DNA of 64,000 bases, from assembly GCA_002269645.1 (NCBI GenBank), contig NIVC01000907.1:248001-312000 (forward strand). Reading direction: 5' to 3'. Position 1 is the stretch's first letter. The number at the start of each line of letters is the position of its first letter. The position numbers were made by a program, and so were the translations under genes. The notes under the pieces were generated by a model. The model did no database searches. It had not been told where the DNA came from and was given only the letters and a program-made list of their open reading frames with translations. This DNA comes from Macrostomum lignano. Lineage: Eukaryota. Shown piece by piece: positions 9,742-62,615 of the stretch.

Positions 9742-10724
9742 CGCTTGCTTAGCTGTTTAGGGTAGTGCGGTTGCCATGGAAACTGCAAAAGTTCGCTATT
9801 GTAATTACTACTGCATCGCCATTGACTGGCGCTTAGTGCTCAAATGTTGATCAGTTTTTCAGTGTGCTTTGTTATCAGTTACAGCTTTTTCTGTCTCCGT
9901 CCGAATTAGTTATTTTCTAACATCGAATTCACTCTTATTTATACTACTAGTTTGCTACCAGACTATCAAGTAGTATGCATTGTAAAATCCGCTCTCCGGT
10001 GCATTTTGTTCGGCTTAAATTTTTTCTAAGAAACTCAATAAAATTTTCTGTGCGGACCGGCACTGAAACATGATTGAATTGCTGAGTTAACACGGCTGGT
10101 ATGTGTACATTTGCCTGCATAGATTTTATATTTTATATTATTCATTTAGTACATTCCGTCCTCTGCTTCGATCTGTGATTCCCATTACATTTATTAACCA
10201 GCGCTTTTTTTGTGTCGTTTCGTAGAATTTTTATTCGACATCATTTTTTTTCAAGGCTTGCCCTCGCTCTGCACTACTCAGTTACCCGGCGCTCAAGCTA
10301 GTAGTATTATTAGTACATCTAAACAAAATTACATCTCAATTTCGACTCAAGCATCAGCTTTGAAATATTGTATTAGCTAATAAAATAATATTTAACTGCG
10401 AATTCATGCCAATGCCTACTTATGCGCTGATTACTCGTACCGCCTGGTGTGAGTAGTATTTGCCAACATTACAGCTATTTTTACCTGAATGCGGTGGAAA
10501 TTGAATTTATGAATCATGACTGACAAATTTATAAATAAATAAATGTGCTAGGCTGACTAAATTATTTGGTCAATTTATATAGAAATGACTGTAAGGATTA
10601 CTCACTACTAACTACTTTATTAAGCATATGTTCGGGGAAAGGTTTTAGTTTCTTCAGAGCCGGTTTACCGACTAAATAAAGCGCAGTTTTGTATAGAAAT
10701 TTGAACTTCTTGCAGCCGACAGAA

Positions 10725-11839
10725 ATGCGCCCTCTGACCCTGGCGCTGCTGTTGGCGCTGGCCTTCTGTGCTCCGTTGCTACCCGGTTGTCAGGCCGAAT
10801 CGGTGGAGCTTGGCGACTCCAACTGGCTGAATCGGCTGGCCGAGAATCGCACCTGGCTGATCGAATTCTTCGCCCCCTGGTGCCCGGCATGCCGGCGGCT
10901 GCGGCCCGCGTGGCAACTGCTGGCCAGGCGTGCTGGCGAGGTCGACGGCCTGAGCGTCGGGCACGTGGACATTGCTAAGGAGGAGGTGCGGGTCGGGGGT
11001 TTCGCGTTCGCTTGGGATTTAAAATGAGGATTTTAGATTTTATTGGGGATTTGGGAGTCTGATTTGGAATTTATGATAACGATTGAGAGTTACGGATGCG
11101 GAATGCGCCGAAATTGGAATTCATTATTTATTAATAGAGGAAATTTAAAGGTAAGATTTGAAAATTGTGATTCCGAAAAATGAACAAGATTGAGAGAAAA
11201 ATCTGGGATTCCTTAAATAAGCAAAGCCTTTAGTCCAAATGCCCAATCATCCCCCACTGTCCCCAGGTGCTGGCCGGCATGTTCCTCATCACCCAGCTGC
11301 CCACCATCTACCTGTACACGCCGGACGGCTCGTTCCGCCAGTTTGACCCGTCCTCCATCCCGGCCGGCGCCAGCGACGACCAGCTGGCCGCGGTGTGGCT
11401 GCGCTTCGCCCGGCCCGGCGGCGGCCACTCCGGCGTCGCCCCGTTGCCATGGTACCGGTCGCCAACCGCGCCGCACGTCCGCTGCATGGCCTGGCTGATC
11501 CGGGGCGCCCTGTCCGTGCGGGACCTGCACACCCGCCTCACCGGGCCGCAGATCGGCATGTCGACCCACGTGGCCTACCTGGTCATCCTGTGCGCCGCCG
11601 TGGCCGTCGGGGTCGGCCTGGTGCTCTGCCTGGTCTGTCTGTGCGACCGCTGCTGCCCCGAGGACCCGCCGGCCGAGGATGACGAGCAGCAGCTGCTGCA
11701 GCAGCAGAAGGTCCTCGAGGCCGCCGCCGCAGCCCAGCGGCAGAAGCTACGGGAAGCCGAAGCCTCCAGCAGTCAAGGCGATGGCGCCGCGGTGCGTCGG
11801 AGACCGGTGCCTGGCGGCGCCGCCGATGGGGAGAACTAA
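10725..11839 (+). CDS. TMX1: Thioredoxin-related transmembrane protein (TMX1/TMX4 family), 2 exons
   Basis: Exons 10725-10985 and 11267-11839. Signal peptide, WLIEFFAPWCPAC active site (WCPAC typical of TMX1), FLITQLPTIY, single TM helix, acidic/Q-rich tail. Confidence 0.85.
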
Positions 11840-21361: not shown

Positions 21362-21430
21362 TGTGCTGCAGTGCAATGTATGCAGATATTTCTCTGTATG
21401 CAGAACTGCTTATATAGAAATTTTATAATA

Positions 21431-21653
21431 GGGGTTTGTAGCCTAGTGGTTAGAGCGTCGGACTTACAACTTGAAGGTTGGAGTTCGATTCCAGATTCCA
21501 CTGGAACAAGATCCCACTTGTGTGGCGACCCCCCCCCCAGTCCTTGGACTAAACAGCCATATGCAGCCTTCAGATGGTTGTGCAATAGCTGCAGCTGAGC
21601 TTTCAATTGCACATTTGCCGATTAGGGCACATGCAATCAATTATTATTATTAT
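21431..21653 (+). mobile_element. Internally deleted, CpG-decayed copy of the same tRNA-SINE family
   Basis: Head and 3' half align with 46897-47195. The Deu/Nin-like core is missing. (TTA)n tail. Confidence 0.85.
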
Positions 21654-30598: not shown

Positions 30599-33500
30599 AT
30601 GGACAGTTACCTAGCCACAAAATGCATTGAACTTACATCTGTCAGCCTGTCAAACTCGTCATCAGTGTCTGTTGACTCATCGGGAAAATTGGCTATTTTA
30701 GGATGGTAAGAGACTTTAGATTGTATTAGCATTACATTGGCTGGCTGCCTGCTGACAGACAGGTTTTTATATTAACCCCCTGAACAACCACAGCAAGCGA
30801 GAGATTGTCCTCTACGATTTTGATGATCAGCAAATTGTCAAGCGAATCCAAGGCGACACCAAATGGGACGTGCACTGCGCCGTCTGGCAGAAGCTGCAGG
30901 ATGCCAGCAGCTCCAAGCTGTTCATGGCGGCTGTGAGTTCGATTAGCTCATTGGCTTTAGTCACGTGACTGCCCTGCTCACTGTGCTCATCCATTAGTTG
31001 CATCATTGTCAAAGTCAAATTACTTTTTTTAACTTATTTATCATGTAGCAATCATCATCCAGGTATATCACTTATTGTAGATCCCATCATGCAGGTGTTG
31101 ATCTCCAATTAGAGATCCCATCATCCAGGTGTTGATCTCCAATTAGAGATCCCATCATCCAGGTGTTAATCTCCCATTAGAGATCCCATCATCCAGGTGT
31201 TAATCTCAAATTAAAGATCCTATCATCTACGTGTCAATCTCCCATTAGAGATCTCATTATCCAGGTAAAAGATCCCATTACCCAGATATTAATCTCCAAT
31301 TAGAGATCCCACCGTCGAGGTGTTAATCTACAATTAGAGATCCCATCATCCAAATGTTAATCTACAATTAGAGATCCCATCATCCAGGTGTTAATCTCCC
31401 ATTAAATATCCTATCATCCAGGTGTTAATCTCCAATTAGAGATCCCACCGTCGAGGTGTTAATCTACAATTAGAGATCCCATCATCCAGGTGTTAATCTC
31501 AAATTAAAGATCCTATCATCTACGTGTCAATCTCCCATTAGAGATCTCATTATCCAGGTAAAAGATCCCATTACCCAGATAATAATCTTCAATTACAGAT
31601 CCCATCATCCAAGTGTTAATCGCTAATTACAGATCCCATCATCCAAATGTTAATCTCCAATTACAGATCCCATAATCCAGGTGTTGATCTCCCATTAGAG
31701 ATCTCATTACCCAGATATTAATCTCCCATTAGAGATCTCATTACCCAGATATTAATCTCCCATTAGAGATCTCATTACCCAGATATTAATCTCCCATTAG
31801 AGATCCCATTACCCAGATATTAATCTCCAATTAGAGATCCCACCGTCGAGGTGTTAATCTACAATTAGAGATCCCATCATCCAAATGTTAATCTACAATT
31901 AGAGATCCCATCATCCAGGTGTTAATCTCCCATTAAATATCCCATCATCCAGGTGTTAATCTCCCATTAAATATCCTATCATCCAGGTGTTAATCTCCAA
32001 TTAGAGATCCCACCGTCGAGGTGTTAATCTACAATTAGAGATCCCATCATCCAGGTGTTAATCTCAAATTAAAGATCCTATCATCTACGTGTCAATCTCC
32101 CATTAGAGATCTCATTATCCAGGTAAAAGATCCCATTACCCAGATAATAATCTTCAATTACAGATCCCATCATCCAAGTGTTAATCGCTAATTACAGATC
32201 CCATCATCCAAATGTTAATCTCCAATTACAGATCCCATAATCCAGGTGTTGATCTCCCATTACATATCCCATAATCCAGGTGTTGATCTCCCATTAGAGA
32301 TCTCATTACCCAGATATTAATCTCCCATTAGAGATCTCATTAGCCAGATATTTATCTCCCATTAGAGATCTCATTACCCAGATATTAATCTCCCATTAGA
32401 GATCTCATTACCCAGATATTAATCTCCCATTAGAGATCTCATTACCCAGATATTAATCTCCCATTAGAGATCTCATTACCCAGATATTAATCTCCCATTA
32501 GAGATCTCATTACCCAGATATTAATCTCCCATTAGAGATCTCATTACCCAGATATTAATCTCCCATTAGAGATCCCTATAAACCTCCCTCCCGCCGCCCC
32601 AACTGCAGCGCAACAATGTCTGCCAGGTGTTCGACTGCGGCGCCAGCGGCGGCTCCTCGCCCGCCTGCCTGGCCAGCCTGCGCGGCCACTCGCGCAGCAT
32701 CAGCTCGCAGGACTGGAGCCGGCTGGGCCCCAACCTGCTGGCCACCTGCTGCATTGACGGAGCGCAGGTGAGCGCCACTCTGTCGGGGATCTGCATGTAT
32801 GACGCGCCTGACTCTTGGAGTAGCAGGGTTCTCAGAGCTTGCAATGTGAAAGTTCGTCCGCCCCCTGCTTGCAAGTTAAGCAGAGTTAGTCGCGGTTAGT
32901 TAGCGGCTGTCCAGTTATCGAACCCCCTTCAGTAGAATGCATGAGGGGGCTTCTGGTGCAAAATTTTTCACGTCCTCCATAATCCCATTAAATCCATCCA
33001 TATTATCCCCGACAGAATCAGAAAAAAGGGGGGTCGCCCTTGCTCCGAAAACTTCGAACATAATCCCATTAAATCCATCCGTATTATCCCCGACAGAATC
33101 AGAGCACAACCGGTGTCCTACTGTTATTCTGAGCATAGCAGCTCCGAAAACGTCATCCATAATCCTCCTAACCTATCCCCCAAAATCCATCTATATTATC
33201 AGAGCATAACAAGTGTCCTACATAATCCACTGACATCCACCCATAGCATGTTCGAAACAATCAGAAAATAATCTGCATTCTTCTCCCCACATTCAATTTT
33301 CAAAGCGAAACCAGATCCCAAAGACTTTAAACCCTCAGCGCAGGGTGCTCACCCTTTGAAAAAAATCTAAATTTTCTCTAAAAATGTTTCCAGTTGTCTC
33401 TCCAGGTTCTTATTATACTCAGCCTAATCCATTGTACAAATCCAAATACCAATGCAAACTAGAATGCAGCGAGTACATGAGAAAATATTGGCCCGGCATT

Positions 33501-36500
33501 GATATCAATGTCCCTAATATTAATCTAGCTCTCCAAAGACACTGGTTTCATAAGTATGGAGTAACCTACGTAAAAGATTACGACAGCTACTATAACTTTG
33601 CAGAAGTTATAAGGCAGTTGTAGTTGGCAACTACAAGGTTGTACCTAGCGGTTTATATCGTAATTTTATAAATCTGAAGACGACTCACATTCTCTCTATA
33701 ACAATTGTTAGCACAAACTCTTCCCCGTTAAAATCAAAACCAACTCCATCCTCTGTTTCAAACTGCAGAACGATTTCATGTATCTCTCTATTACTCAGAA
33801 TCACTCTTTTCACGGGGTTCGGCTTTTGCACAAGCATTTTGCCACCAGCAACAGAGTTTGAAATGTTAAAAAGTATGTTGGTTCGTTTGCCTTTGAATAT
33901 CCAATCATGGCTCAGATTGCTACGAATTAATATATTCAAACCTTTGACAATGTCAGCGATATTTGGCGCCAAGTACATACCGGATATTAGCCGGGACACA
34001 GCAACAGTGCCAGGCGCCTGCAGCGGGCTTTGGTCTGTGGCGCCACGCGGCCACCATAAACTCTCTTTTCAAATCCCAACTCGCGATACCAAGTGCCATC
34101 TTTAAACTCTACCTCTGCGTCCTTATGAACTTGCAAGATAACTCTCATGACAGTTAGATCATAAGTTAATCTAACAGGGAACAGTTTATTTTCTGGTTTG
34201 CTTTCATCCGGTATCTCAAAATGCTTTCGTTTAGTGAAGACTTTCTCCAAGAAGTAATTATAAGTATCCACGCTCTGTGTGCTGACAGGAAATATCACAA
34301 CCTCTGTTGTAGTACGCTTCCATTTGTAATAAAACTTGTTATTTTCCGCTGTCACATTGGGAACATTTGACCACCCAGTGAAATCATTGAGATAGACGTG
34401 GTAATTCGCCTCGGGATCCAAACGAAGTGGTTGCTCCAATTTTTGAATGAAGATTCCGTTTGACTCAGTAATGCGACCCGCTACAGTGATTGGAATGCTC
34501 TCCTTAGAGTGTGAAACAATGTTGTTTAGTCTTTCGGCTATGGCTTCCATTTTTTATTGAAAAAAAAATTATTCAAACTTTACTAGACGAGTTATTTATC
34601 ATATTAACCTTGATTTTCCTCTCAAATGCATAGATAATAAACAGATCAACAGCCGTTGCGGCACCAAATTCTTTCCGCTCGATATTAGTCACAATGTTAA
34701 CAGGGCTATTGTCTGTAGGCATTTGTCTAGCAGTCACATCAACACCAAATATTGGATATAGTTTTTATACTGCAAGGTTGTCAAAACAATACCGTTATTC
34801 TCTTTGACAGCCAGGTCCGACAGTTCATTGTAAAACTTACTAATCTTGTTCTCCGAGAAATTCCCATTTTGTGGCAATGCAGGGTATAAATTGTCACTGA
34901 TCTCATGTTGAATCGATCGAATGTTTCCATGTAGATATCTACCTACATTAGTTGTATTCCTCATAGTGACAATAATGTACCTTGGATTGCTACAGGAGCC
35001 TTCTTTAATGCAAATATTGTGTCTTGCGTCATTCCGCTCATCTCTGCACATATAAGCTGTATAAGCAACATCAATGTCTTTCTCAATCGCCTTCAAGTAT
35101 TCAGCTTTGAGTGCAGTCTTGGGCTCAATAATTTCTAAGTACAGCTCCACGCTAGTTAGCTTAATCTCCATCGATGTATGATTGGCCCCCGACCAAATTC
35201 CTCTGTTCCGATCATCTCTAGTCAGTCTAAATGTGTAGCTAAAGTTGCTTGTCAACCGATTGAAACTATTACAGAAACCACTCATAAACCTCAAAGGTAC
35301 AAAAATATCTACAGACCTAAACAGCGGATTCTTAGCAGCATCGTTCTCACCAACAAGAGCATAGTTGTATCTCTCCTTTCTCTTTTTGTAACCAAGGTCA
35401 TTCTCATCTCCTGTCTGTTCATTGGGGATGAATCCAGCACCGCTCCCCATCTGAATAAAATCCGGGTTCTCAATCAAGCACTGGGTATCATAGACCACAC
35501 CAAAGTTTGCTATTCTTTCCAATTCTGTACTTCCATTGGACACATTAAACTCTTTGAACATATAAGCCCAGAAATTACTGGTTAGTGCGACATCCGCATT
35601 GTGTAGATCATCATTTGCATGAGCGGCGTCTGCGCCTCCTTTAGTTTTGAATTGATACGTCATATAGAAGCCGCTCCTTAGACTGTGCACACTAACCAAA
35701 GACGAACATCCATTGTATGTAAATGTCAGTGTTTGACCTGGACCCAAATTAGTTTCATTCTGATTTTCCTGACTGGGAACTCTTACCTGAGTCGCTTTGA
35801 TTGTGCTATCATCACTCAAAATAGGCTTGTTAATTTTGTAGAAAACCGGTGTCAGGGGATCGTTCATTTTTCAACAAAAGAAAAAATATTTAAAAATGAA
35901 GCGGAAAAGTTCATATCATATCTCTGAACTAGAAAAGCTGGCGCAGGCAGAAAAGAGAGTTACAGGGCTAATCAACAAAGAACAACAATCTTACAATGAA
36001 TTCGTCCAAGCAGCCACCGAATTTCACAAACCCGGATACACAGAAGCGAAGAAAAACCTCGACACTGTGAAGGAAGCAGTTGATGATATTCAAGAGAGCC
36101 ACTTGCAAAACACATTGGGTAAAATCCCATCTTCACCGGGACAACCACAGGCTCAGCAACCAGGACAACCAGTGCAGATGAATGTGAAGGATAACTTTTT
36201 TGGCCCCGTATTGGATGATGGAAAATATATTTTTGGAATTAGTGCCTGGCGAAAAAATATTACCGGGGAACCGGCGGATTACAACATTGAAGTGACAAAG
36301 GAAACTATTTCAATCAATAAAGGCGCAGAAACTAAACGAATCCCCTTCACTCAAACTTTACTTGATTACATGACTAAAAATCAGAAAAAAAAGATCCGAG
36401 AAGCAGCTAAAAAATTACAAAGATCTTGTTACCTTTGCTCTCGATAGGGACATAGATATGCTCAAGAACAACGGTGTTTTGAAAATTTTACATGAAAAAG

Positions 36501-39500
36501 GGATTGTCTTGAACAATTTTAAAAAATACAAATACTTTAAACAATGGTTTGGTTTGCCGGATCAAGAAGAGGTCATAAGACAACCAACACAACAACCACC
36601 ACAACAACCACAACCACAACAGCAGCAACCACAACAGCAGCAACCAAAACAACAACTACAACAACCACAACAGCAGCAACCACAAACACAACCACAACCA
36701 CAACAACCTCCACCGCCACAGCAACAAATCACACCCGAACAAGTACTAGAAGCGCTTGAAAAAGCAGGGCCAAATGAGATTTCCCAGTACAGAAACCAGC
36801 GCCCAGATGAATGGCGACAATTAGAACAGTTCTCCCCAGAACGAATGAAGCGAATCAATGACAGAGTATTCACACCTAGGCTACAGCAACCCTCACCAGG
36901 AACATCCTTCTCTGACCAATCATTCGAATCACCACCAAGCTCTTCCGGAAAAGGCATGCCTGAATTCTACAAGCGAGTAGCGGTTCTTCTAGGAGCGGCA
37001 AAGACCGGAATGAAAGATGAGAATAGAAAAGAGTTCGTTCACATCCTCAATAAAATGCTTGAGAGAAAATACATCGATAAGAGGGCGAGAGAGCTTCTGC
37101 TTTCGCGGTTCAACAAAAAATGATTTATTTCAAGTAAAAATGCCACTTATTTTCGAAAAAGACATTGACAAATACTATGACAAAGAGGAACTTAATCTCA
37201 TTAAACGCGGATCTGGACTTTTCCCTGCAGGCCACTATCCAAGAAAAGAACGCTCTGGGAATGGCCCTGCCGATTTGATCGCTCAGGGGGCCAAGATTTT
37301 TAAGGTCATTGGAGAGAACAAAGAGAACATCAAGAACGTTGCCGAAGCGGCCGGCAGTGTAGTCACAGCAGCCAAAAAGATTAAAGATACGGTTCATGAA
37401 ACCCGGAAATCAATACCAGATATTCAACCCCTTGCACCGAGTGCAGATAGTGTCGATCCAGCCATCTACGCAAAGATGAGAGCTGAATATAAGAAAGGAG
37501 GCGGTTTTAAATTTGACTAATTTGGTGCACCCTGACGGTAAAAGAGGTGTGAGGGTGTAGGACTAGTCGGATGTAGGACTAGTCGAAAAAAGACACACAC
37601 ATACACATCCCGAAAAAAGACACACGCGTCTTAAATACACAAGTTTAAAAAGAAAAAGTTTTTTTACATAAAAAATGGACTTCACAAACGACTTTCATCC
37701 CCACTGGACACGCAATCAGATAAAATTTGCTCACAACGAGATAATTCCAGGGCACTTCCGATGCATTGTTGTTGGCTCATCTGGGTCAGGGAAAACCTTC
37801 AGAGTTTTTAACATGCTCCTCAGACCTGGATTCCTCGATTATGACACACTACATATCTATTCACCCACTCTGTATCAAGATGAGTATAAAATGCTAGTAG
37901 CGGGCCTACAGAACAAACTCAACAAGGAAGATATTATTCAATGTTTTAGACATCAAAAAGACCTCAACAGCAACCCGGAAGTTGTAGCCACTGAATACGC
38001 AAAGCACATCCCAGACAATGAAAAATGGCAAAACATTAAAGTTTTCACTTATGGAGATCCACAGATAGATCCTAAAACTAAACTCTTACCTCAACCTGAT
38101 GAACTAGAAAAGGGGAGAAAGCACCTGATTGTCTTCGATGACTGCATGACCGGTCCCCAGAAACAGATAGAAAATTATTTCACCCGGGGTAGACATAATA
38201 ATTGCAATGTTATTTACATTGCCCAAAACTGGTTTGAACTGCCAAATAAAACAATTAGAGGTAACTGTAATTTGATTCTCCTTTTCCCAACCATACCACA
38301 GGATCGACTGAAACGATTTTATAATGAGGTCATTGCCCCAGCTCACATTACATATCCAGCTAAGAACTCTAACAGAACAATATCACAGGAGGAATTTGTT
38401 AACATATGCTATGAAAAGTGGAACCAACCCTATCAGTTTGTCATGATTAATAAGGAGAAAAGAATTTTACTTTAATTTTTCATTTAAAAAAATGTCTATT
38501 AATTTTGCTGGTGAGTCAACTACAGGCAACAGCACTCTCACAACTTCCTTCCTTGACAAGCGCTACATTAACACTGATGAAGAGATCCCAGAGATCAAAC
38601 TGAATAAAAACAGACTGAAAGCCCTAGAGCGCTCCATGCACCAGTTGCAAATAAACATGGAAGATCTCAGGCTTAAAGTAGCTAGGCAGAAGTTTGAAAG
38701 TGATAAGCTTTATGTGCCGTTGTTAAACGCAACTAATGAACTAAGGTCAGAAATAACTTCGATAGTCTCGCTAATCAACGGCTTAAGATCGACAGTTAAT
38801 CTTCTGGGAAATTCCACTGATAGACGGATGCGTATTCTTGAAGGAGGAGTTTTCACAAACACAGCTAAAGTAAATAATTTAGAAGAGTTCATGAACCAGT
38901 CAACAGCGTTGCATGATAGAATTAAAGAAAACGTCGCAACCAACACAGGTAAAGTAAATAATTTAGAAGAGTTCATGAACCAGTCAACAGCGTTGCATGA
39001 TCGAATCAAAGAAAGACTTGAAGCATTAAAGAGAAAGGATGTATCACACAGTAGCTATCTAAACGGAATGTATAGCTCTTGGGGTAAAATAATAAGGAGG
39101 CTTGATCGTCTGGAGAGAACACTCAATCTTCGTGATATTGCTATTGATGAAGCAGAATCTACTGCTCGTCCGGTCATGTCTACAGATCGAGTAGAAGGAG
39201 CTCTGGACCCCGCCGGAGTAATCCGGCACGCTCTCAAACGTCAGCCGCCCAGCCGCTGCCTGCTGGACTCGCGATCCTCCGGCGTCACGAGAGCCGCCTA
39301 GACAACCGGCGGTGCAGATGGAATTATCAAAAAGAAAACAGATCTTCAAACCGGATAGTTTTATATTTTTTTTATTTTTTCTAGAGAAAAAAATGGCCCA
39401 ACAAAATTCTCTATACGATCAGTCTCAATACGCTGAACCTAAAATACCGACAGCACCAAACCCAATGGCACCGAATTCGAACACACAAAGCCTGAATGCA

Positions 39501-42500
39501 CCGAATCTGAATGCACCTCAATATGAGCAACAAAAACTCTACCCCGTCATTACTTGTAACTCTCAACAGTTTCGACTGGTGGAGATTAAAAAATGCGAGA
39601 TGATCTTGAAAAAAATATTTTCCACAACACAAAGAAAATTAAGCGCTATAACAGCCACTGTAAATTTTTCGACTACAGCAATATGATTCTAGGATCTGTG
39701 TCTGTTCTATCTGGATCTGCTGCGGCTGTCTCAACGTTGCCAGTCATCACAGCCCCAATCGCAATCCCACTCGGCTCTGTGGGTGCTGCATGTGGACTTA
39801 TTTCAGCAATTACTGGAGCATTAGGGCGAAACAGGCGAAAAAAACTAAAGCAGCTACAGGAGAAGCAAGTAAAAGAGAAAGGGGTGCACACTTCAATCAT
39901 AGGGTACATTTCAAGGGCAATCGAGGATAAGTTCATTTCAGAGGATGAGTTCAAAACCATTCAGGATCTTTATGAACAAACAATTCGAATGAACTTGAAC
40001 ATGGTCGGTACTGATGACATGAGTCAGCTGAGAAATGAACTCGAGAAAGTTCTTCAACATTATGTGGAAAGAAAGTCGGCAAGAAATTCACAATGAACCC
40101 TTATGAAACACAGGTACGAATAATTTCCTTGTAGGTCTTTCGTGTTTTGGTCATTGCATACAAAACAGTCATGCACAGCTCACCGCAAATATCACTGCTA
40201 AGACCTTGGAGAATAAAGTCTGAGCGATAAATTTTTTTATTATTTTTTCCCTTCATATAATTTCTTAGCTCTTCTGGTACTGCCGTCCCATAGCTATCGA
40301 AGTAGTAACACTTGTGCTTGCGATCGGGATCAATCACCCAGCAAACCCAATGAGATCCTGGTTTATCGGTGGTGTCAAAATTCATGATGCCGCATTCTTT
40401 TCTTAGAGGAAAATCAGGCAGAGTGTCCCTCATAAATATTCCTCTAAAGTTTGGGATTTCCAGTTCGTTAGCCAAATCTTCAAGAAAGTTATTTGTTGTC
40501 ATTTTTTATGAGGTTTATTAAACTTTCTCTTAAACCTAAACCTAATCTCAACCTCCTAAACCCAATCTCCTAAACCTAATCTCCAGTGCCCGAACGGTAG
40601 ACTGTTAATATTGTCATCAAAAATGAATCTTTTATTATCTGCACCTGACAGTCCAATCTTTTTTGCTGAATTGTGTGAATAATATGGTTTTTGGATTGTA
40701 GCTTTGAGAACTCATGTGATGTCTTTTTGTTGCAATTCAAGGCGTCTCTGTATTCAGCTTCATTAATTTCCTTCCTAACCACGCGTTTTGGAATTCCCTT
40801 TGATTTTTTAATTGGGTCTGACGACTCACATTTTACAAAATAGGACTTTGCTCTCGACCCAATGAATTCAGTGATTATGTCACCAGCAATCTCGTCCTTC
40901 ATTTTCCCAATCACTTTCTTGTTAGTGGCGTCAAACACTTGATCGCCATTCTGTGTCCTGAAAGATTCATCATACTCAGACAAGTCAAACAAATCTTTTT
41001 GCTGCAGCATGTCCTGATAAATGTCTTCTGTTTGAATGTCCATAATAAAACTGTCTGTGTCAGTGTACAAGAGTTTCATTTTATCCTTGTACTGCTGCTT
41101 CATGCCATAGAAGAACTGGTACATCAGACGTTTTGATTCGTCGAGAACAGTGACACCTGTATAGATCGGCTTGCGCAGCGTCACCTTGGTTTTGTAAAAT
41201 ATGATCACACCTAAGTAGCTATTAAAGATATGGAGTTCTTTGAATGTTGGCTTTGACATATTTGCCTGAATAACAGCAGGCTCTGATGAGGTAACAAGTT
41301 TCAGGTTTGTTCTTTTCCGCTCATTTTCAAGAGTCTTGCCATAGACAGAGTTGTTGGCCAACTTAAAGAGGTTCTTGTCAAAGTCGTTGGTTGCTTTGGT
41401 CCTAAACTGGGTGTTCTTATCAATGTAGGGTTTCATCCACGCTTCCTCTGTAAATGTAAGAGCCCTGTGAACTTTGGTGACCCTGCAACCAAGTGAGATA
41501 AAATACTGAAGCAGTTTGTAATGGATTTTGTAACGTGTCTTGTTGTTTAGATTCTGTGTTAGTTTCTCTGTATGTTCTTTTTCTGTTCCTGACAGGTGCC
41601 AAGTTCCATTATTATCATTGGGAGTTTCGATTATTTTCGGGCACTTGATGTTCTCTGGGAAGGGTGGAAAGTCAGAGAAATAGTCGTGAAGCTCTGGTGG
41701 AATGTAAACATCAACCTCATAAATGGCAGCCAATGAAAAGTCCCATTTGAATTCTGATGAGGGTAGCCATCGAAAATCTCTAACTGGAAGATCTTGACTC
41801 ATCGCCCACCCGTAGAGATTATTAGCGTCCAAGTAAGTAATGTAGTTTGAGGGCTGCTCCTTATTGTAAGATTCAATGTAGGGATTGTTTGCTTTTGCAT
41901 ACCTGTTAACGCAAATTGAGATCCCCCTCGCTTTGACGATTCGACAAAATTGTACATGTCAATGTCTGTAAGAAGTTCAATGTACCAATCTGGATCTTGA
42001 TCCCATTTCATTTTAAGCAAAGATTCCCAGCTAGTGGCAGGCAGAGACACATAATGTGCTGGATCGAGGCCATATGCTGTGTACCAGGTGTATCTGAAGG
42101 TTTCAAACACATCGGCCAGCAGAAACACATCTGTGTAGAGGTAAAGCAGGTGATACTGGAAGAAGTTTTGACAATTAAAGTAATTATAGACATGCTTCGC
42201 GTGCTCATAGTCTTTGTCAGAGATTCCAGAGTCTGTTAGCTTTGAAAAGAACTTCTCCTGTGGTGGTAAACCTTCTTCAAATACGTGATAACCAGTAATA
42301 TTCTCATAGGGGTAGAAGCCTTTCTTTCTTAAAAGTTTAAATGATTCATCAGTTCTTGCAAATATCTTTGTATATGTACATTGTTCATCTTTTAGATTCT
42401 TGCTTAGTTCGTCTAGACTGGCAGCTAGAAATTGATATGAATCCTTCAGTCTTATTTTACCTTTACTGTTACCCGAATTATCCTGTTTAATATCAACACA

Positions 42501-45500
42501 CTTAAACTTCTCCTTGTTCTCTGCGATGCAGTCAAGGTGTATGTCTGAATCATGCCGATTTTTTCAACTATTAAATGCATGTCATAGTTCTTTGCGTTGT
42601 GACAAAATATCGTTAGATCATGAATGTTCGATTTTAGCTTTAGATTACAGGTGTTATGCGCTGCACCTCTAAATTTCCCAGTAAAGTGACAGTGGTCCCT
42701 AACGGTGGGGTTTTTAATATCAGTGCAAGTTAACTGTTTCCTGCAGATGTGGCAATGAGTTGCTGATAGGAAATTGCTTTCATCCTCCTCAGTCATCATT
42801 ATTGGAACAGGTTGAAGAGTGCTAATCACTCTTTGCAACTCTAACATTCTGGCAATAAACTGCTCCACACACTGCTCTCCAAAGAAATAATTATACTCAA
42901 CAAGTCCTTTTGTATTAATAAAGGCATATGCTACTGAATTGGGGACATGTCTTTGAGTTTGTTTTTGAGTTTGAGTTTGAGTTTTTTTGAGTCTCTGGCA
43001 TGATTGAGCATTCGAAATCAGCATATACAACAAATGGGAGCTTCTCCATCTTGTGATAGTTCTTAAAACGGAGATACTTCTCTTCAGCTGAAGGAAGAGA
43101 GCAATTGGTCGGGTGATCCTCGCATGATAATTCATGCTCTGATAGTTTTTCAAGACGCTCAGGTCCACTGTAATGCTTAAGGCACAAGCGGCAGATGGCA
43201 ACAGCCTCGTGATGATTATTCAACTGCTTGTGAATGAGTCTTGAAAGATCTTTAATCCAAACATAGTGAGCCTCCTCTAGTAAATTACCAATCACTAGAA
43301 GATCCACTTCAGTCCGCCTTTTCCCCTCAGGATCTAAAACGTCTTTGCTACATCTGACCGGTTGAACTTTCTCAGTTTTTTCACTCCACTCAAAGACTGT
43401 GATTCTAATTTTGTTATTAAACACTTCTTCTAGCTTTGGGATCTGAGAGATCGCCAAGCCTCCTTTGTCAAACCTGATTCCCTTCTTTTCGCATTCAATG
43501 AGATAGTGCTTGAAATAATTTTGATAATTTGAGGTTCTTTCGGGGTTGTGAGAGACACTATCATGATGAAGTGCAGAAAGAACTGCCCATAGAGCACAGC
43601 AGTTGTCTTTATTTTTAACATTTATGCAAGCTTTTTTTGCCGGCTAGCTTATGCGGGAGATCTATATAAGAGGAGGCTTTAAGTGGGTCATATTTCATGA
43701 CCATAACAGTCGCTCTTTGAATCCCTCCCACGACCCATCCGGAACCTCTGGACGTAAACGCTTCAATTTTCTTAGTGACATCTTGAAGGAAAGGATCCAG
43801 TGTGTCTGTAGGGGTGAATGGCTTTGCCTTTGTTGTCATGTAATACTCGAGATGTTCAGTGGGTTTCGCAGGCATATAAAACGCAATCTTGAATGATATC
43901 TGTAGTTTAAAGGTCTTGCGTGTTTTGAGTGTGTGATCAACAACTGATTGGATGCTGTCTTTATAGTCGTAGATGTTTGCGGTGGTGCCGTTTATTGGGA
44001 TTGTGTACTCTATGTAATGTTCTGTAAACTTCCTCTGTGCAAAATTAATCTCTTCAGTGGCAAGCTCCGACTCTTTTAAATGGATTAATTGCTCTAATTT
44101 CTCTTGTTCCTGCTTATTTTGTGGGTACTTTGCTTTTTCACCAGTGAGAGTTTCATATTTGTTAACTAAGTTGCGACTCCTCTCTTGGTGTTCCTTTGCA
44201 GGATTTTGTATAGGCGCATACTGGTTGGATTCTAATTGTTTTATGATTTCCAACTGTTTTTCATAGCTTCCCAGGTAACCAGGGTCGGTGTTAAACTTTT
44301 GTTTACATGCTTCTCTTAGTAAATTACTTTTGTCTTGAAATGAGACGCCTTTTGAAAAATATTTGTTGACTAAATCTTTTGCTGGATTGGCTTTGGGCAT
44401 TTTTTTCTCTAAAATATAAAAAAATTTTGAGGGTTACCACCCTGATAGAAAAGTTGAACTGTTTCTACATCCTATCAGTAGCTTTAGGTTTATGATGCTG
44501 GATAAAGTGGGGGTTTAAACCTCATCACATCCGCATTATTGTAAACCCAGCATTGTGCAGTGTCATGATGGCTTTGACAATGTCGGACTTGCTTACAGAA
44601 TTTTGATGCTCACAATCATCATGATCATCACAATCATCAAAATCACGGCAGCCCTCTCCTGCCTTAATTGTTATACCTTTGTCTCTTGCAATCTTTTGTA
44701 ATTCTAGCTGGTGGGCTCTATCATTCCCAGCTTTAACAGCAGTTGCTACACCTCCAGCTACACCACCTGCGGCACTTACGGCACCTGCAATGATTGGGAT
44801 AAGAGCTGCTAATGGTAGGATTCCTCCTGACTTTTCATTTGTGATGCTGTGTCTTTGTTCATTACATTGAACTATTTGCTGCACGGGATCGATTTTTACT
44901 TTGGCACCTTTAATTGATATAAGACCTGGTTTCTTTGATTCAATGATTTTATTGAGTTTATTGATGGTTCTGGTTTCAATCTTTGTCATTTTTTATTTTA
45001 ATATTTTAATTAATTTCTGTGTCAGCTGGTATCACTAGGAGTTCAGCTCTAGTGAATGACCGCGTGGGGGATTTAGGGTTAAAGGCCTGAGATAAAAAGT
45101 AATACTCTCCAGAGTCAGAGGTAAAATGTCTGTCTATTTTATGTACATCAAGGCTGAAGTATGGATCTGTAGCTCTTCTTTTGGTGTCTTTCTCTAGCTC
45201 TCCAGGTAGATATAAAAAGCGTAGAAACTCAGAGTTTGTCAGTATGTATGGTGATTCAACTCTTGGAAGCTTAGGGTAGTTCGAGGTGTGTTTTGTGTTG
45301 TGCGTGTTGTGTGTGTTGTGCTTGTTGTCTGTTCTATGAGATGCCTTAAGTTTGACAGTGTCTTGTTTAATTGCATGGGACGGTTTCAAACCAGTCATAC
45401 GTGTGACTTCATTGTTCAGTTGCTCTATAACAGTAGGGAGTCTTTCTGTCCACTTGGTATAGTATTGCCCCGCACTCAGTTTGAGTTCTTGCGCTGTCTG

Positions 45501-48500
45501 CTTAGTGAATAGTCTCTTGGCTAGAGTTAAATTAAATCTCTCAACGTACGCTTGGTCCCTGTGCAGGTCTGTTCTTCCGTAGCGAATCTTAGTATTTTTC
45601 TTTTCCATAAGGGATTTGACTGCACCCATGAATTCCTTACCCGGGTCGGTCATAAAGATTTCAGGGTAACTAAGGGGCGAGTTTTTATAAATATCTTGGA
45701 GTGCGGCTGCAACTGCTTCTGATTGTTTAGTCTTTAGTGGGCGAGCTTCCTTATATCTGGAGGCAATGTCTGTAATTGTGAGAGCATACTTGTAGCCTGA
45801 GTCATTGGGGAGAAACAGAAGATCTGCTTGGTGCGCCTCATTAGGTTTATAAATACTGAAATGGGGCCTTTCAAATTTTACTGGTGGGAAATAGACTTGA
45901 AAGACAGCCTGCTTAGAGAGCCATTTTTCTACTGTAGCTTTTGGCTCTTTACTCAGCTCCATGAGTTTACTAACGGCATTTTTGCCTACAAAGAATCCTT
46001 TGTCGCTGTAGTAGAGTTTTTTAAGTTTCTGATCTGTCATTTTTTAAAAATAAATTTTTAAATAATATAATGCAACGCTCTGGTGGTAAAATAGATTCAC
46101 ATGGACTGATAGAAAAGCTTCCTCATCCAAACAAAGGCTGGACAGTTCCCGGGTACAAATATTGCGGGCCTTTGAATCCACTTGAAATACAGCTGGATGG
46201 ATACAACAACCCAAATCCTGGACATGAGCCTGTGAACGAGCTAGACTCTGTCTGCATGTGGCACGATGTTAAGTATAGAGATTTTCCAGAGGAGAAGAAT
46301 CGCTGGGACAAAGAAATGCTTAGGAGATTAGACAATATGGGGACTTCAAGCGGATTTCGTGAGTCGATTGCTAGGAAATTAGTCAAGGCGGTTATTTTTG
46401 GTAAGACAAAATTGGGGTTGGGGATGTACGCCGAGGGCGGGTGTTTGGGAAGAGAGGGTGGGTGCACGGGGAGAGAGGGCGGACGCTCGGGAGTAGGGTT
46501 TATTTTGCACGCACCAAGTGAAGTACTAGGAAACTGCTGAAAGAGCTGGGGTTGAGAGAGACGCTTGAGTCGGAAAAGATTATTCGCAGCCAAGCGCAAC
46601 AGCCGCATTTTGAAAAGGGGTGGGGTAACTGCTATTTGCTGAGGGAGCGCAGCTTTTGCTAATGTACAAGTTCCACGCGTGCTTTCCTTCTCTTTCCTTT
46701 CTTTACCTTTGTATTGCACGCACCAAATAAAGAATTAGAAAGACTGCTGAATAGTTTACATTGATAAACAACTGAAGGACTGAAGCGACAGATTATAGTC
46801 GCTATATAGTTTATTAGTTTATTATAGTTTTTTCATGTGGTAAGCAACGTGGCAACAACAAAGCATGCAGCAGAAGACAGAATGCCTATCGTAGGTAAAT
46901 AATAATAATAATTGATTACACAGATGTGCAACCGACAGCTCAGCCGCAGCTATTGCGCAGCTCATCCGAAAGCTGCGTACGGCTGTTCAGTCCAAGGACT
47001 GGGGGGGGGGGTCGCCACACACCCTCAATTACCCCAGCTAATGCTGGCACCCATTTTACAGCTGGGTGAACTGAAGCAATGCGGAGTAAAGTGCCTTGCT
47101 CAAAGACACAGATTGTTGCAGTGGGATCGGGAATCGAACCCCCCAACCTTCATTCAAGTCGTGAGTCCGACGCCCTAACCACTAGGCTACAATCCCGTAG
47201 GTGCAGGGTCTAAACTATGCAACAATATAAAAGGTTTCTGGGTGAGCGCCTGCTTTTTCTCCAGCCCTTCTCTCACCCGTCTTGCCCCACCGCCTCTCAT
47301 TCCAAACCTGTCCTCTGGGCGCCTCTCTCTCTCTTCGCAACTAGCTCTACGCTCTCCTAGTCAAACAGCCACCTCAGAAAATGAAACCGCTGGTTTCAAA
47401 TTTTGAGGTGGGTGATCTGAGTTCTGCACTGCTTCTCTCGGCAACTAGCTCTACGCTCTCCCGAGCTCATTCTATTTTTAGTCAAACATAACACTAGCGA
47501 TCTCGCGCTGGGGGGTAGAGGGGCGCCTGGGAATTTTGAGTCTCCCGTTGTACTGAAATCTCCTTCCCCTTGAGCTCCTCTCCCTTTCCCTTCCCCAGCA
47601 GTCCGGGCCAGAGCACTGGGCTCTCTTTGCACAGGGGCGCCACCTCAGAAAATGAAACCGCTGGTTTCAAATTTTGAGGTGGGTGATCTGAGTTCTGCAC
47701 TGCTTCTCTAGCCTCCGCAACTAGCTCTACGCTCTCCCGAGCTTAGTCAAACAGCCACCTCAGAAAATGAAACCGCTGGTTTCAAATTTTGAGGTGGGTC
47801 TACACTGCTTCGCTATCCAGCTCTCACCCGCCCTGCCACTCACTGCATGCAGTCCGCGCATTCCGCCATAAGTCCCCTCTTCTCTCTCCACCCACCCTCC
47901 CTCTGCAATTCACTTCTGTGCAGTGCAGCGCCAAAGCCAAAAAAGAGAATTGCAGAGGGTTGAGGGTTGAGCCGAGCGGGAGGGGGTCTTTCTTTTCCTA
48001 ACCTCCGCAACTAGCGGCTCCGTTTTCTTCTACATTCTCCCGAGCTTAGTCAAACAACCACCTCAGAAAATGAAACCACTGGTTTCAAATTTTGAGGTGG
48101 GTGATCTCTTCTACGCTCTCCCAACGCATTGTATGGGTTTTATTTTTTAGAACTTACGTCTACACTCTACAAGGTACAACCTTCTGGGTGATCCCTCCGT
48201 TTTCTTCTACGCTCTCCTAGTCAAACAACCACCTCAGAAAATGAAACCAGTGGTTTCAAAATTTGAGGTTGGTGTCAATATTAGTAATAAAAAACTATCC
48301 AAGGATAACTTGCTATTATTATAGCTTCATGAGTTGCTAAATAAACAATAGATAGGTAATTTAAAAGTTAAAACAACAAGCCTTCGTCCAGTTCCTGTTG
48401 CAGCATCGCAAGGGCCTCTGGCAAGTATGCCATCATCGACTTCAGCTTGTGTAGGGACATTGCAGATCTTCGTAGCACCGGATATTTCTCAGCCTGGTCA

Positions 48501-51500
48501 GCCAATTTCATCAGAAAGTTGGTCCACTGGCTGGTGAACGGTGCACGTCTTTTCAGCTCGTTGAACTGTTCCTTAGTGGAACCCGCTCCATTCTCAGAAA
48601 GATCCTGCCGAGCTGTAGACCGTTTGCAAAGCCATGCTTGCCGTGCCGTTCAAATAGTTTATTGAGGTTGGCAATCTGTACAAGCACCGCGTCGATCGTG
48701 AATGTTCCCTGCTTAAATTCTTCTAGAGAATGCTCTGGCACAGGCTCACCGTTGGTCTTGTAGGCCATGCGCAACTCGTCCAGAGCCTTGCTGATTTGTG
48801 ATTGCTTGTCGGCAGTTTTCGCTAGCCGACCATTGATAGTTGGCTTCACGATGGGTGACCGAGCAATTGCATTATATTAATCGGCCCAAACATTCCAATT
48901 GTCAAGATCTTTACTAGAAAAAACCGCCTTGATGAAGTTCTCCAGATTTTTTATGTAAACGTTGTCGCCTGCTTGCATTTCAGCATCCATGGCAAGATCC
49001 AGAGATTAAGCAAGTCAAAAATAAAAAGTTGCTGGCAAGGCGAGGTGAGGCGGGGAGAGACGGAGCAGGCAGGGTGAGGCGAGGGGCGGTGTGAATCGGC
49101 TGTTTATACGAGCTATACCACACGGAAAGCACATGTGGAGCGCGTGGCATGGGTTTTATTTTTAGAACTTACGTCTACACTCTACAAGGTACTACCTTGT
49201 AGTTGGCAACTACATGCAACTGCCTTATAACTTCAGCAAGAAGTTGATTTAAAGTCTTTGGGATCTGGTTTCGCTTTGCAAATTGAATGTGGGGAGAAGA
49301 ATGCAGATTATTTTCTGATTGTTTCGAACATGCTATGGGTGGATGTCAGTGGATTATGTAGGACACTTGTTATGCTCTGATAATATAGATGGATTTTGGG
49401 GGATAGGTTAGGAGGATTATGGATGACGTTTTCGGAGCTGCTATGCTCAGAATAACAGTAGGACACCGGTTATGCTCTGATTCTGTCGGGGATAATACGG
49501 ATGGATTTAATGGGATTATGTTCGAAGTTTTCGGAGCAAGGGCGACCCCCCTTTTTTTCTGATTCTGTCGGGGATAATATGGATGGATTTAATGGGATTA
49601 TGGAGGACGTGAAAAATTTGCACCAGAAGCCCCCTCATGCATTCTACTCCCTTCTAATCAGAATTTTGTTTTTCTCAGGCCTGCTGCGTGTGGGATCTGC
49701 GTGCCTCCACTCGGCCAGTTGTTATCCTACAGAGCGTCCTTGGCGCCTCCGAGGTCCGCTGGTCGGACTCCAACGAGCACCAGCTGGCTACGTCGCACGA
49801 CCCGGATGTCCGCATCTGGGACCTGCGCAAGGAGCATCCGAACTCCGAGCCGCTGCTCAGACTGCCATTGAAATACCAGACTGCTCACCTGAGCAAAATA
49901 CGCGACTTAGACTGGTCTGGGGACCTGTTACTGACCTGCTCGCAGGATTCCCGAGCCAAACTGTGGGACTCGGAGGCCGAGCCAGCCGGACTGCGAATGC
50001 TGTCCGAGGGTATCACCAACGATATGGCCTTTCATCGGGCGAGATTTGCGCCGTTTCGCGGTGGCTTCGCCGCTGTAACCGGAGCTAACAGGTTCTGTCC
50101 ATTGCTTTCAGCTTTGCAATTTTGGATAGGGGTATAGCGGATGCAACTCCCTTAAAGAGAGCTAAGTTACTATCGATACATATCGGCGGAATCTAGCACT
50201 GTTTAATAAGTTACTATCGATACATATCGGCGACACCTAGCACTGTTTATTAAGTTACTATCGATACATATAGCCGACACCTGGCACTGTTTATTAAGTT
50301 ACTATCGATACATATCGGCGATATCTAGCACTTTTTAGTAAGTTACTATCGATACATATCGGTAGCGTCTAACAGAGCAGTTTTTAATACATGTCAAAGA
50401 TTACCAGCACCGTTTATAAAGTTATTTTCAATGCATATCAAATGCGCAACGTACATTTCCAGACGGGCCGATTCGCTGACACTGTGGACTAACCAAAACA
50501 ACGGCCTCGTCCAGGTGTTCAGCTTCGTCGGCCATCAGGACACCATCTACGGCTTCGACTGGCTGCAAGCGAGCCCCGGCGGCAGCTGCTCGCTGGTCAG
50601 CCTCTCCAGAGACGGCACCCTGCGGCTCTGGCCAATCAACAACAGCCTGTTGCGCCTCTGCGGCTCCCTCTCGGCCGGCGACGACCGCGAAGACGCCGAT
50701 GCCAACGAGGCCGATGCCGCGGAGCCTGGCGACGCCGCCGCTGAACAGCAGCTGGTGGAGGACAGCGAAGACGCTGCCACTGACATCGCGGGCTCGGCCA
50801 CACCGACATCGTCCGCAGTTGCCGCCCCGTCCGCGCCTGCCAGTTTGGACTCTCGCGCCTGCGGCGGCGAGGCCGCGGATGACGGTGCCGATCCGGGACT
50901 GGAGAACGGCGGCGTCACCCGGCCGATGCTCATCTCGGCGCCCAAGTCGGCAGCGCAGCAGAGCGGCGGCGGCGGCTCCGCACAAAAATCTGCGTCGCTG
51001 TCCGGCGTCGGCTTGAGCAGCCCCTCGTCCGCTGCGACCCCGTCTGTGGCGGCTTCGGCCGGAGCCCAGCAGCAGAACTTGCTGCTTCAGCCAGTCAGCC
51101 TGCGGTCCGAGGTTCGACACCTGGCCGAGTCTTTGTCCGACCGGCTGAAACTTGTGCAGCCCGGCGATGGGGCCGCCACTGCGCCTGCCGGCTCTGCGGA
51201 GCTGGACAGCGGCGGCGATGTTGGTAAGCTTGAGACTGTGATCTTCTGGGTGAGATTTTGAGCATCTGTGTGAGATTTTTAGACTTTATGGTCGTCTGTG
51301 TGAGATTTTGAGACTTTAGAATTGTCTTTGTGAGATTTTGAGACTTTAGGATTGTTTTTGTGAGATTTTGAGACTTTAGGGTCATCTTGTGAGATTTTTT
51401 AAGACTTTATGGTCGTCTGTGTGAGATTTTGAGACTTTAGGATTGTCTTTGTGAGATTTTGAGACTTTAAGTCACCTGTGTGAGATTTTGAGACTTTGAG

Positions 51501-61578: not shown

Positions 61579-61706
61579 CTCTCGTGTCCAGCTCCGCTAT
61601 TCCTTTTATTACACTCGTACGTGACGGACTAACAATTGATAAAACCTTCAAGGCCAATTGATAAGCCCGTCTGATGTTCCCAATTTTCAGCTTGACTGAC
61701 TGACTG

Positions 61707-62615
61707 ATGGCAGATTCCACTACCTCAGCGTCGGATGTGAGGCTGGAGCTGCAGCAGCAGCGTCACAATAAGCAGCCAAAGCGCCTGGTGTACTTCAGCG
61801 ACGGCGTGCTAGAAGAGTACTCTAGCTCGGACAACGACGAGCTTGTCGGGCCCGACGACGCTCGCCGACCGATGCACACCCGACGCGGCGGCAAAAATTC
61901 GGCCGACTCGCAGCGCATAATCGATCCGCACAGCCTGACCTGGCTGCCCTGGTTCTGGTGAGCTGTGCTGGGCGTACCTGCGCTCCCGTCTGCTGACAAC
62001 TGGTCTTGACTTACCTGACCTTGATCTGACCCTGAATTGACTTGACTTTGATCTGACCCTGAATTGACGTGACCTTGATCTGACCCTGATTTTACCTGAC
62101 CTTGATCTGACCCTGATTTGACATGACCTTGAGCTGACCCTGATTTTACCTGACCTTGATCTGACCCTGATTTTACCTGACCTTGAGCTGACCCTGATTT
62201 TACCTGACCTTGATCTGACCCTGATTTTACCTGACCTTGATCTGATCCTGAATTGACTTGACCTTGATCTGACCCTGAATTGGCTTGACCTTGATATGAC
62301 AGGACCTTGATATGATATGACATTACCTTGACTTAACATCGTCTGACCCGCAGGTACTACAGCTGCCGGCTCGGTCGCGGCCTGCTCCGCTCAGCTGACT
62401 ATTGCGGCGAGCGAGTAGCCTGGTTTCTGGGCATCACAACGCCAAAGTACGGCTATATTATTCGTGAGTTCCACCGCATCAAAGAGGAGGAGGAGAAAGA
62501 GAGGCTGGAGCAGGAGGCAGAACTCGAGGCCAGGCAAAGGTACGAGGCCGAGCAGCAGCAGCAGCAACAACAACAGAGGCAGAAAACTGTGACTGCTTCA
62601 GCTTCAGATTCGTAA
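61707..62615 (+). CDS. FAM177A1: FAM177A1-family protein, 2 exons
   Basis: Exons 61707-61957 and 62354-62615. PKRLVYFSDGVLEEYS, DPHSLTWLPW, DYCGERVAWFLGITTPKYGY. Confidence 0.88.
61985..62345. repeat. 27-bp minisatellite in the FAM177A1 intron
   Basis: GACCTTGATCTGACCCTGATTTTACCT repeats. Confidence 0.9.

Follow-up and report, generated by a model that had tools for sequence, protein, structure and literature searches.

Lightly Decayed or Misread? Frame Breaks in a Maverick/Polinton Within a WDR59 Intron of Macrostomum lignano

A viral element whose core genes are split by frameshifts and free of in-frame stop codons raises a simple question: is the element broken, or is its assembled sequence wrong? 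The question arises for a 16,718-bp Maverick/Polinton in Macrostomum lignano, which lies within the stretch of 64,000 nucleotides analyzed here (GenBank assembly GCA_002269645.1, contig NIVC01000907.1, positions 248,001 to 312,000 of the forward strand; hereafter the window, in whose coordinates all positions are given). A first-pass annotation had read the frameshifts, which it placed in homopolymer runs, as the mark of consensus error rather than decay and had proposed that the virus may be intact. Our analysis confirmed eight frame breaks, with a ninth likely in a gene at 35.9 kb, and seven breaks fall at runs of at least five bases. The account that we consider somewhat probable is that of a young, insertion-polymorphic, and lightly decayed copy overlaid with consensus errors, which short reads cannot correct in such a repeat. 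The copy at this locus has probably been inactivated by a small number of real lesions, perhaps a single one, rather than by nine, and the family to which it belongs is probably alive.

The element occupies 32931-49648 and carries terminal inverted repeats (TIRs) of 401 bp within a perfect 6-bp target-site duplication (TSD). The TIRs end in AG, and AG ends together with a 6-bp duplication fit a Maverick/Polinton. The insertion site is an intron of the host gene WDR59, between exons that match residues 99-127 and 131-252 of the human protein. Seven WDR59 exons join into one open frame of 913 codons with no stop, so the host gene is intact. Profile searches identified a protein-primed DNA polymerase B (pPolB; PF03175, E 2e-8 for one piece), a retroviral-type integrase (PF00665, E 4e-9), an A32-type packaging ATPase (PF04665, E 8e-7), an adenovirus-type protease (PF00770, E 2e-4, slightly above the cut-off), and a double jelly-roll major capsid protein (PF21738, E 1e-6, with 11 relatives at 41-76% identity); the element also encodes pX-like and phospholipase A2 (PLA2)-like proteins. 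The polymerase has 4,121 relatives at E<=1e-20, of which the nearest named ones come from cnidarians and a mollusc (41-44% identity). No related locus was found in the viral contigs or metagenomes searched, and none of 10 window proteins was present, as an exact sequence, in the cluster collection. The integrase, ATPase, and protease are uninterrupted, as had been annotated, with open frames of 344, 266, and 133 amino acids.

The breaks were mapped in two ways. Relatives provided the first, through tblastn of 96 full-length polymerase relatives and through read-through translations with an X at the break, scored against profiles of relatives (intervals cover placements within 4 bits). Short reads provided the second: 20 of the 24 listed runs (seven studies, one organism) contain 65-69% of sampled words, and contigs from four runs, one per study, were aligned to 32600-47320, with the indel evidence coming from 12 of 42 indel rows. 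The five shifts annotated in pPolB stand, as the relatives divide the gene into six frame pieces joined by shifts of both signs at 43630-46 (run of 7), 42951-43005, 42533-54, 41908-27 (run of 5), and 40652-77 (run of 6). Contigs of all four runs differ from the window by a one-base indel at 43632, 42546, and 41921-2, and those of three runs do so at 40658. The third of the five breaks had been placed in a run at 42560. The contigs put it instead at 42546-47, which is 13 bases from that run and in a place with no run longer than two. For the break near 42985, none of the 12 indel rows gives a position. One contig shows no further one-base gap across 42547-42976 and the relatives permit a break up to 43005; the 7-base run at 42982 is therefore the likely site. 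The single shift in the capsid gene lies where it had been annotated, in a run of five at 34759-66 by the relatives and at 34761 in contigs of all four runs. The single shift of the gene at 39.4 kb was likewise placed at its run of six by the relatives (39588-604) and at 39587 by contigs of one run in four. No indel row among the 12 covers 36385-36414 in the 35.9-kb gene. Its two ORFs probably belong to a single gene, since they overlap and no A-run precedes the ATG of the second. By comparison, an A-run of at least four stands directly before the ATG at 11 of 12 gene starts (33685-46540), which adds runs to the element. The shift in the probable penton gene is of another kind. The annotation had noted that it could be placed in a short A-run; it turns out to be an 8-base indel near 34.04 kb, in contigs of all four runs, which explains the whole frame offset and sits in a palindromic context with short repeats. 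No piece of any core gene contains an in-frame stop, as the annotation had noted. Outside the genes, contigs of all four runs have a small indel at a 7-base run at 33359, and two further gaps probably lie near the runs at 34550-34568 (34521-34561).

What the contigs describe is a family. Those of the element are about 10-55 times deeper than the flank contig, and even with depth as a rough guide this excess indicates a multi-copy family. Its frames are open at the polymerase and capsid breaks seen in contigs, which is evidence about the family and is not tied to the copy at this locus. One hint that bears on the locus, and that favors error, comes from the run X1, in which the flank bridging the junction has a depth of 6.9 and the 40658 indel is found in a contig with a depth of 6.1. 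The open family frames bear directly on the annotation's alternative that the breaks are programmed sites of ribosomal or transcriptional slippage. Slippery-heptamer patterns do occur near five of the eight breaks scanned, in a scan without a chance control and as expected near any A/T runs. Against this, the frames of family contigs and of relatives are uninterrupted at the break sites covered, which rules programmed slippage out in practice. A polymerase whose translation had to shift five times, in both directions, would hardly ever be made in full. In addition, one break is not at a run and another covers eight bases. We give this explanation next to no credence. Separately, contigs over the capsid and ATPase genes (35508-38000) have about one-third the depth of the polymerase contigs (40456-46347), and the capsid arm may be missing from, or diverged in, many members of the family.

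Whether run-associated breaks point to error or to decay is a matter of rates. The claim that the frameshifts favor homopolymer runs is borne out, in that runs of at least five bases make up 3.2% of coding positions and contain five of the six one-base breaks pinned by contigs (P ~2e-7). This clustering does not by itself separate error from decay because natural indels also fall mostly in runs; in the part of a C. elegans study used here they amount to ~0.37 per substitution (10.1101/529214). Nor does the lack of nonsense codons carry the weight that the annotation gave it. At the divergence of this copy 1.2-1.8 nonsense changes are expected, so that observing none (P = 0.16-0.32) is unremarkable and makes a weak argument alone. 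The stronger evidence is the surplus of run-length breaks over nonsense. With slippage calibrated on human rates by run length (interpolated from two points quoted from PMC3638132, with an SNP density of 0.3% assumed), 0.5-0.9 run indels are expected and 5-7 are seen, and the probability of obtaining all the run indels and no nonsense change is 0.0001-0.01 at the human rate. This surplus favors consensus error for most of the one-base breaks. A check on slippage in the host itself came from 28 tandem arrays (13,552 nt, 5.9% divergence), which contain 794 substitutions and 35 one-base gaps, or 0.044 gaps per substitution, with none at runs of at least five; fast host slippage is thus not apparent in the arrays, as far as their 12 such runs suggest.

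Other changes in the copy look real. The left and right TIRs had been said to differ in run lengths, and two such differences were found; the TIRs also differ by two substitutions per 401 bp, which had been omitted, and are 99% identical. The seven least diverged of 20 contig pieces contain 14 substitutions in 3,876 nt, and together these figures put the divergence of the copy at ~0.3%. The copy is unevenly diverged from the long contigs across 33591-45440, at 0-0.7% for some pieces and 1-4% for others, and the differences are mostly synonymous; this may reflect subfamily recombination or a mosaic consensus. Synonymous sites account for 20 of 32 coding differences in the rows covered, relative to 27% expected without selection, and the isolated coding sites split evenly into seven synonymous and seven others; these isolated sites combine variation within the family with change that was not under selection. 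At capsid positions 35395 and 35656, the window's residue occurs in none of the 11 relatives and the contigs' residue occurs in 11 and 10 of them, respectively, while a third missense site in the capsid is uninformative. In a palindromic context with short repeats, an indel of eight bases is typical of repair or slippage and not of consensus error, so at least one break, that of the penton gene, is probably a real mutation. A short interspersed element (SINE) with its own 7-bp target duplication has also entered the accessory region, and a related copy lies at 21429-21576.

These observations weigh on the proposal that the copy is fully intact and that every break, including the 8-base one, is an artefact of consensus or cross-copy polishing. 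The perfect TSD, the 99% identical TIRs, the absence of nonsense codons, and an apparently polymorphic insertion are all consistent with it. The window's version of the breaks has no contig support as a distinct allele in the 12 indel rows available, and false consensus may add substitutions as well as frameshifts, according to the sections of PMC10120064 cited here. Consensus errors would not typically take the form of an eight-base indel in a palindromic, repeat-containing sequence, or of a transition at a capsid site where all 11 relatives agree, and the TIRs too differ by substitutions. The 8-base indel and two capsid residues unlike both the contigs and the relatives thus make an intact virus at this locus unlikely, and we regard the all-artefact explanation as improbable.

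The opposite explanation is that all nine breaks are real and form a pseudogene cluster, produced either by fast host slippage or by self-copying outside mismatch repair with complementation. Indel-rich run spectra of this sort are known from the C. elegans data (10.1101/529214) and from knockdown of msh-2, where, in the portion of the report used, indels outnumber substitutions ~5-fold and mostly alter a run by a single base (PMC8727991). As mismatch-repair loss yields the same spectrum, the explanation stays alive. About eight one-base breaks against ~44 substitutions expected at 0.36% divergence would be compatible with it, as would shifts of both signs, and the 8-base indel, the missense changes at conserved sites, and the SINE all attest to real change within the element. 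It must accommodate ~7 of 61 coding runs of at least five bases being hit at just 0.3% divergence, host arrays with as few one-base gaps per substitution as given above, and breaks that are not a common haplotype in any of the four runs, which indicates that no defective lineage was amplified. On balance we find it doubtful, though a good deal more plausible than an intact copy.

In the account that we prefer, an active Maverick family with many copies would have placed one of them in the WDR59 intron fairly recently. The copy would then have acquired a few real mutations, namely substitutions at ~0.3% of positions and, probably, the 8-base indel of the penton gene. The run length in the assembly's consensus would be wrong at most one-base breaks, since a single copy cannot be polished with short reads that derive from many nearly identical ones. 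Several points weigh against this account. The slippage calibration is human and interpolated from two quoted points, and the probability given above rises to 0.06-0.13 at three times the human slippage rate and to 0.4-0.5 at ten times. The controls are weak, with runs of at least five bases numbering 12 in the arrays and two in the WDR59 exons, and one-base gaps are absent from 17 of the 28 arrays (6,927 nt), which suggests that the assembly is not noisy overall. At the breaks, the short-read evidence consists of collapsed contigs rather than of reads tied to the locus. Contigs also lose rare alleles, so a missing window run length does not prove an error. Residual depth in the run X7 illustrates this: over 37 substitution rows (tallied from 40 of 369, with three beyond the gene region excluded), the window's letter has about single-copy depth at nine, higher depth at 15, none at 12, and no cover at one. 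The 12 sites at which it is missing from X7 include a cluster of three synonymous ones that lie 150 bases from the capsid break. The same run gives no short-read support to the window's version of the 8-base indel or of seven missense sites.

The age of the insertion can be approached from its left junction (32930), where the runs disagree. The contigs of one run cross into the repeat, those of another fork at precisely that point, and those of a third go on into other sequence. The X1 contig extends 32 bases, rather than 30, into the repeat, and the diverging run continues for 86 letters that match nothing aligned, with the evidence confined to the left flank. We infer that filled and empty alleles segregate and that the insertion is polymorphic, and it would therefore be a young insertion from an active family.

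Both the type of element and the type of artefact are already known. Like animal Mavericks/Polintons as described in the portion of Barreat and Katzourakis 2021 cited here (PMC8097293), the element has pPolB, integrase, ATPase, protease, major capsid, TIRs, and a 6-bp TSD, and its 16.7 kb and 401-bp repeats match the means of intact vertebrate copies (16,862 bp and 402 bp); PZ, PW, and PM were not identified in it. The same source found 96% of the copies surveyed to be degraded. With the adintoviruses, as presented in part of Starrett et al. 2021 (PMC8502044), it shares PolB, an rve integrase, an FtsK-type ATPase, an adenain protease, a hexon, and PLA2-like and pX-like domains, which differ in being separate ORFs here; the 39.4-kb gene differs in having given no gasdermin match in the searches described below. 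Strain-specific insertion has been reported for nematode Polintons (excerpted from PMC10748475). On the artefact side, the relevant sections of Bellas et al. 2023 (PMC10120064) describe false-consensus frameshifts in multi-copy endogenous viruses, and those of Wick and Holt 2022 (PMC8812927) describe unpolished run errors in repeats. Our element is likewise multi-copy, far deeper than its host flank, and fragmented by one-base breaks. Those cases are protist and bacterial assemblies, whereas in this element error is the probable cause of most one-base breaks and some of the damage appears genuine. How many Mavericks are counted as intact or as dead hinges on assembly quality, and the present copy shows the hazard in both directions: run-length breaks can overstate decay, and calling them all errors can overstate intactness. 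The family itself looks active: contigs from four studies have open frames, copies differ mostly at synonymous sites, and the insertion appears to be present or absent by sample. A bolder possibility is that the breaks are genuine and were left by the element's own polymerase as it copied the element beyond the reach of host mismatch repair, in a family still moving in a much-sequenced animal. We consider this a long shot. If true, it would reveal what mutations Maverick replication leaves behind outside the chromosome, and would offer a host in which to seek free genomes or particles, which the cited part of PMC8097293 describes as not yet seen.

Three of the genes are weakly identified. The gene next to the capsid is a probable single jelly-roll minor capsid (penton) gene by position only; a Pfam search gave no match, its Atlas look-alikes are unnamed or DUF5901 (13% of members), and its structure model has a pLDDT of 35. 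The 39.4-kb gene had been called GasderminX, a name that our searches do not bear out. Gasdermin appears in none of its 10 profile matches (E<=1), with the published GasderminX set not covered by a profile-profile search, and none is among the Foldseek PDB matches listed for a model of the C-terminal 167 amino acids. That piece (39593-40096) was modeled as a long helical hairpin (pLDDT 90), whose nearest matches are uncharacterised proteins of iridoviruses (E 1e-4); its similarity to SLATT-type two-helix membrane proteins of giant viruses is weak. For the 35.9-kb gene, no relatives were found for the first half and no usable Atlas match for the second. Table 1 lists the features of the locus.

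Table 1. Features of the element and the adjoining WDR59 exons, in window coordinates
Feature	Position	Strand	Remark
Host WDR59 exon preceding the element	32627..32767	+	matches human WDR59 99-127, yeast Mtc5 101-136
TSD, left copy, 6 bp	32925..32930	.	
Left TIR, 401 bp, AG end	32931..33331	.	
Probable minor capsid (penton) gene	33685..34550	-	named by position only; frame broken near 34.04 kb by an 8-base indel
Major capsid gene, double jelly roll	34576..35867	-	one-base break, run 34762-34766
35.9-kb gene, two overlapping ORFs	35896..37123	+	probable break somewhere in 36374-36447
Open ORF, 126 aa, no family match	37140..37520	+	
Packaging ATPase (Pox_A32), open	37675..38475	+	
Open ORF, 269 aa, in-frame 84-nt tandem duplication	38492..39301	+	
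Helical-hairpin gene (earlier label GasderminX)	39393..40096	+	one-base break, run 39588-39593
Adenovirus-type protease (Peptidase_C5), open	40101..40502	-	
Protein-primed DNA polymerase B + endonuclease VII-like domain	40577..44400	-	five breaks: near 43632, 42985 (inferred), 42546, 41922, 40659
pX-like core protein gene (Adeno_PX), open	44525..44989	-	
Retroviral-type integrase (rve), open	45006..46040	-	
Phospholipase A2-like gene, open	46070..46540	+	
tRNA-derived SINE, 7-bp target duplication, accessory region	46890..47202	-	high copy in host
Right TIR	49248..49648	.	
TSD, right copy	49649..49654	.	
Next host WDR59 exon	49679..50091	+	matches human WDR59 131-252, E 9e-21

The accessory region also contains, at 47333-48274, at least five copies of a motif of 46-100 nt, two of which form an inverted pair. 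The host WDR59 region extends over 32627-60245, with a RING exon at 59775-60245 and introns packed with minisatellites. Elsewhere in the window, host exons encode a thioredoxin-like protein (10680-11024), a FAM177-like protein (61704-62612), and a coiled-coil, DUF4200-like piece (5862-6125).

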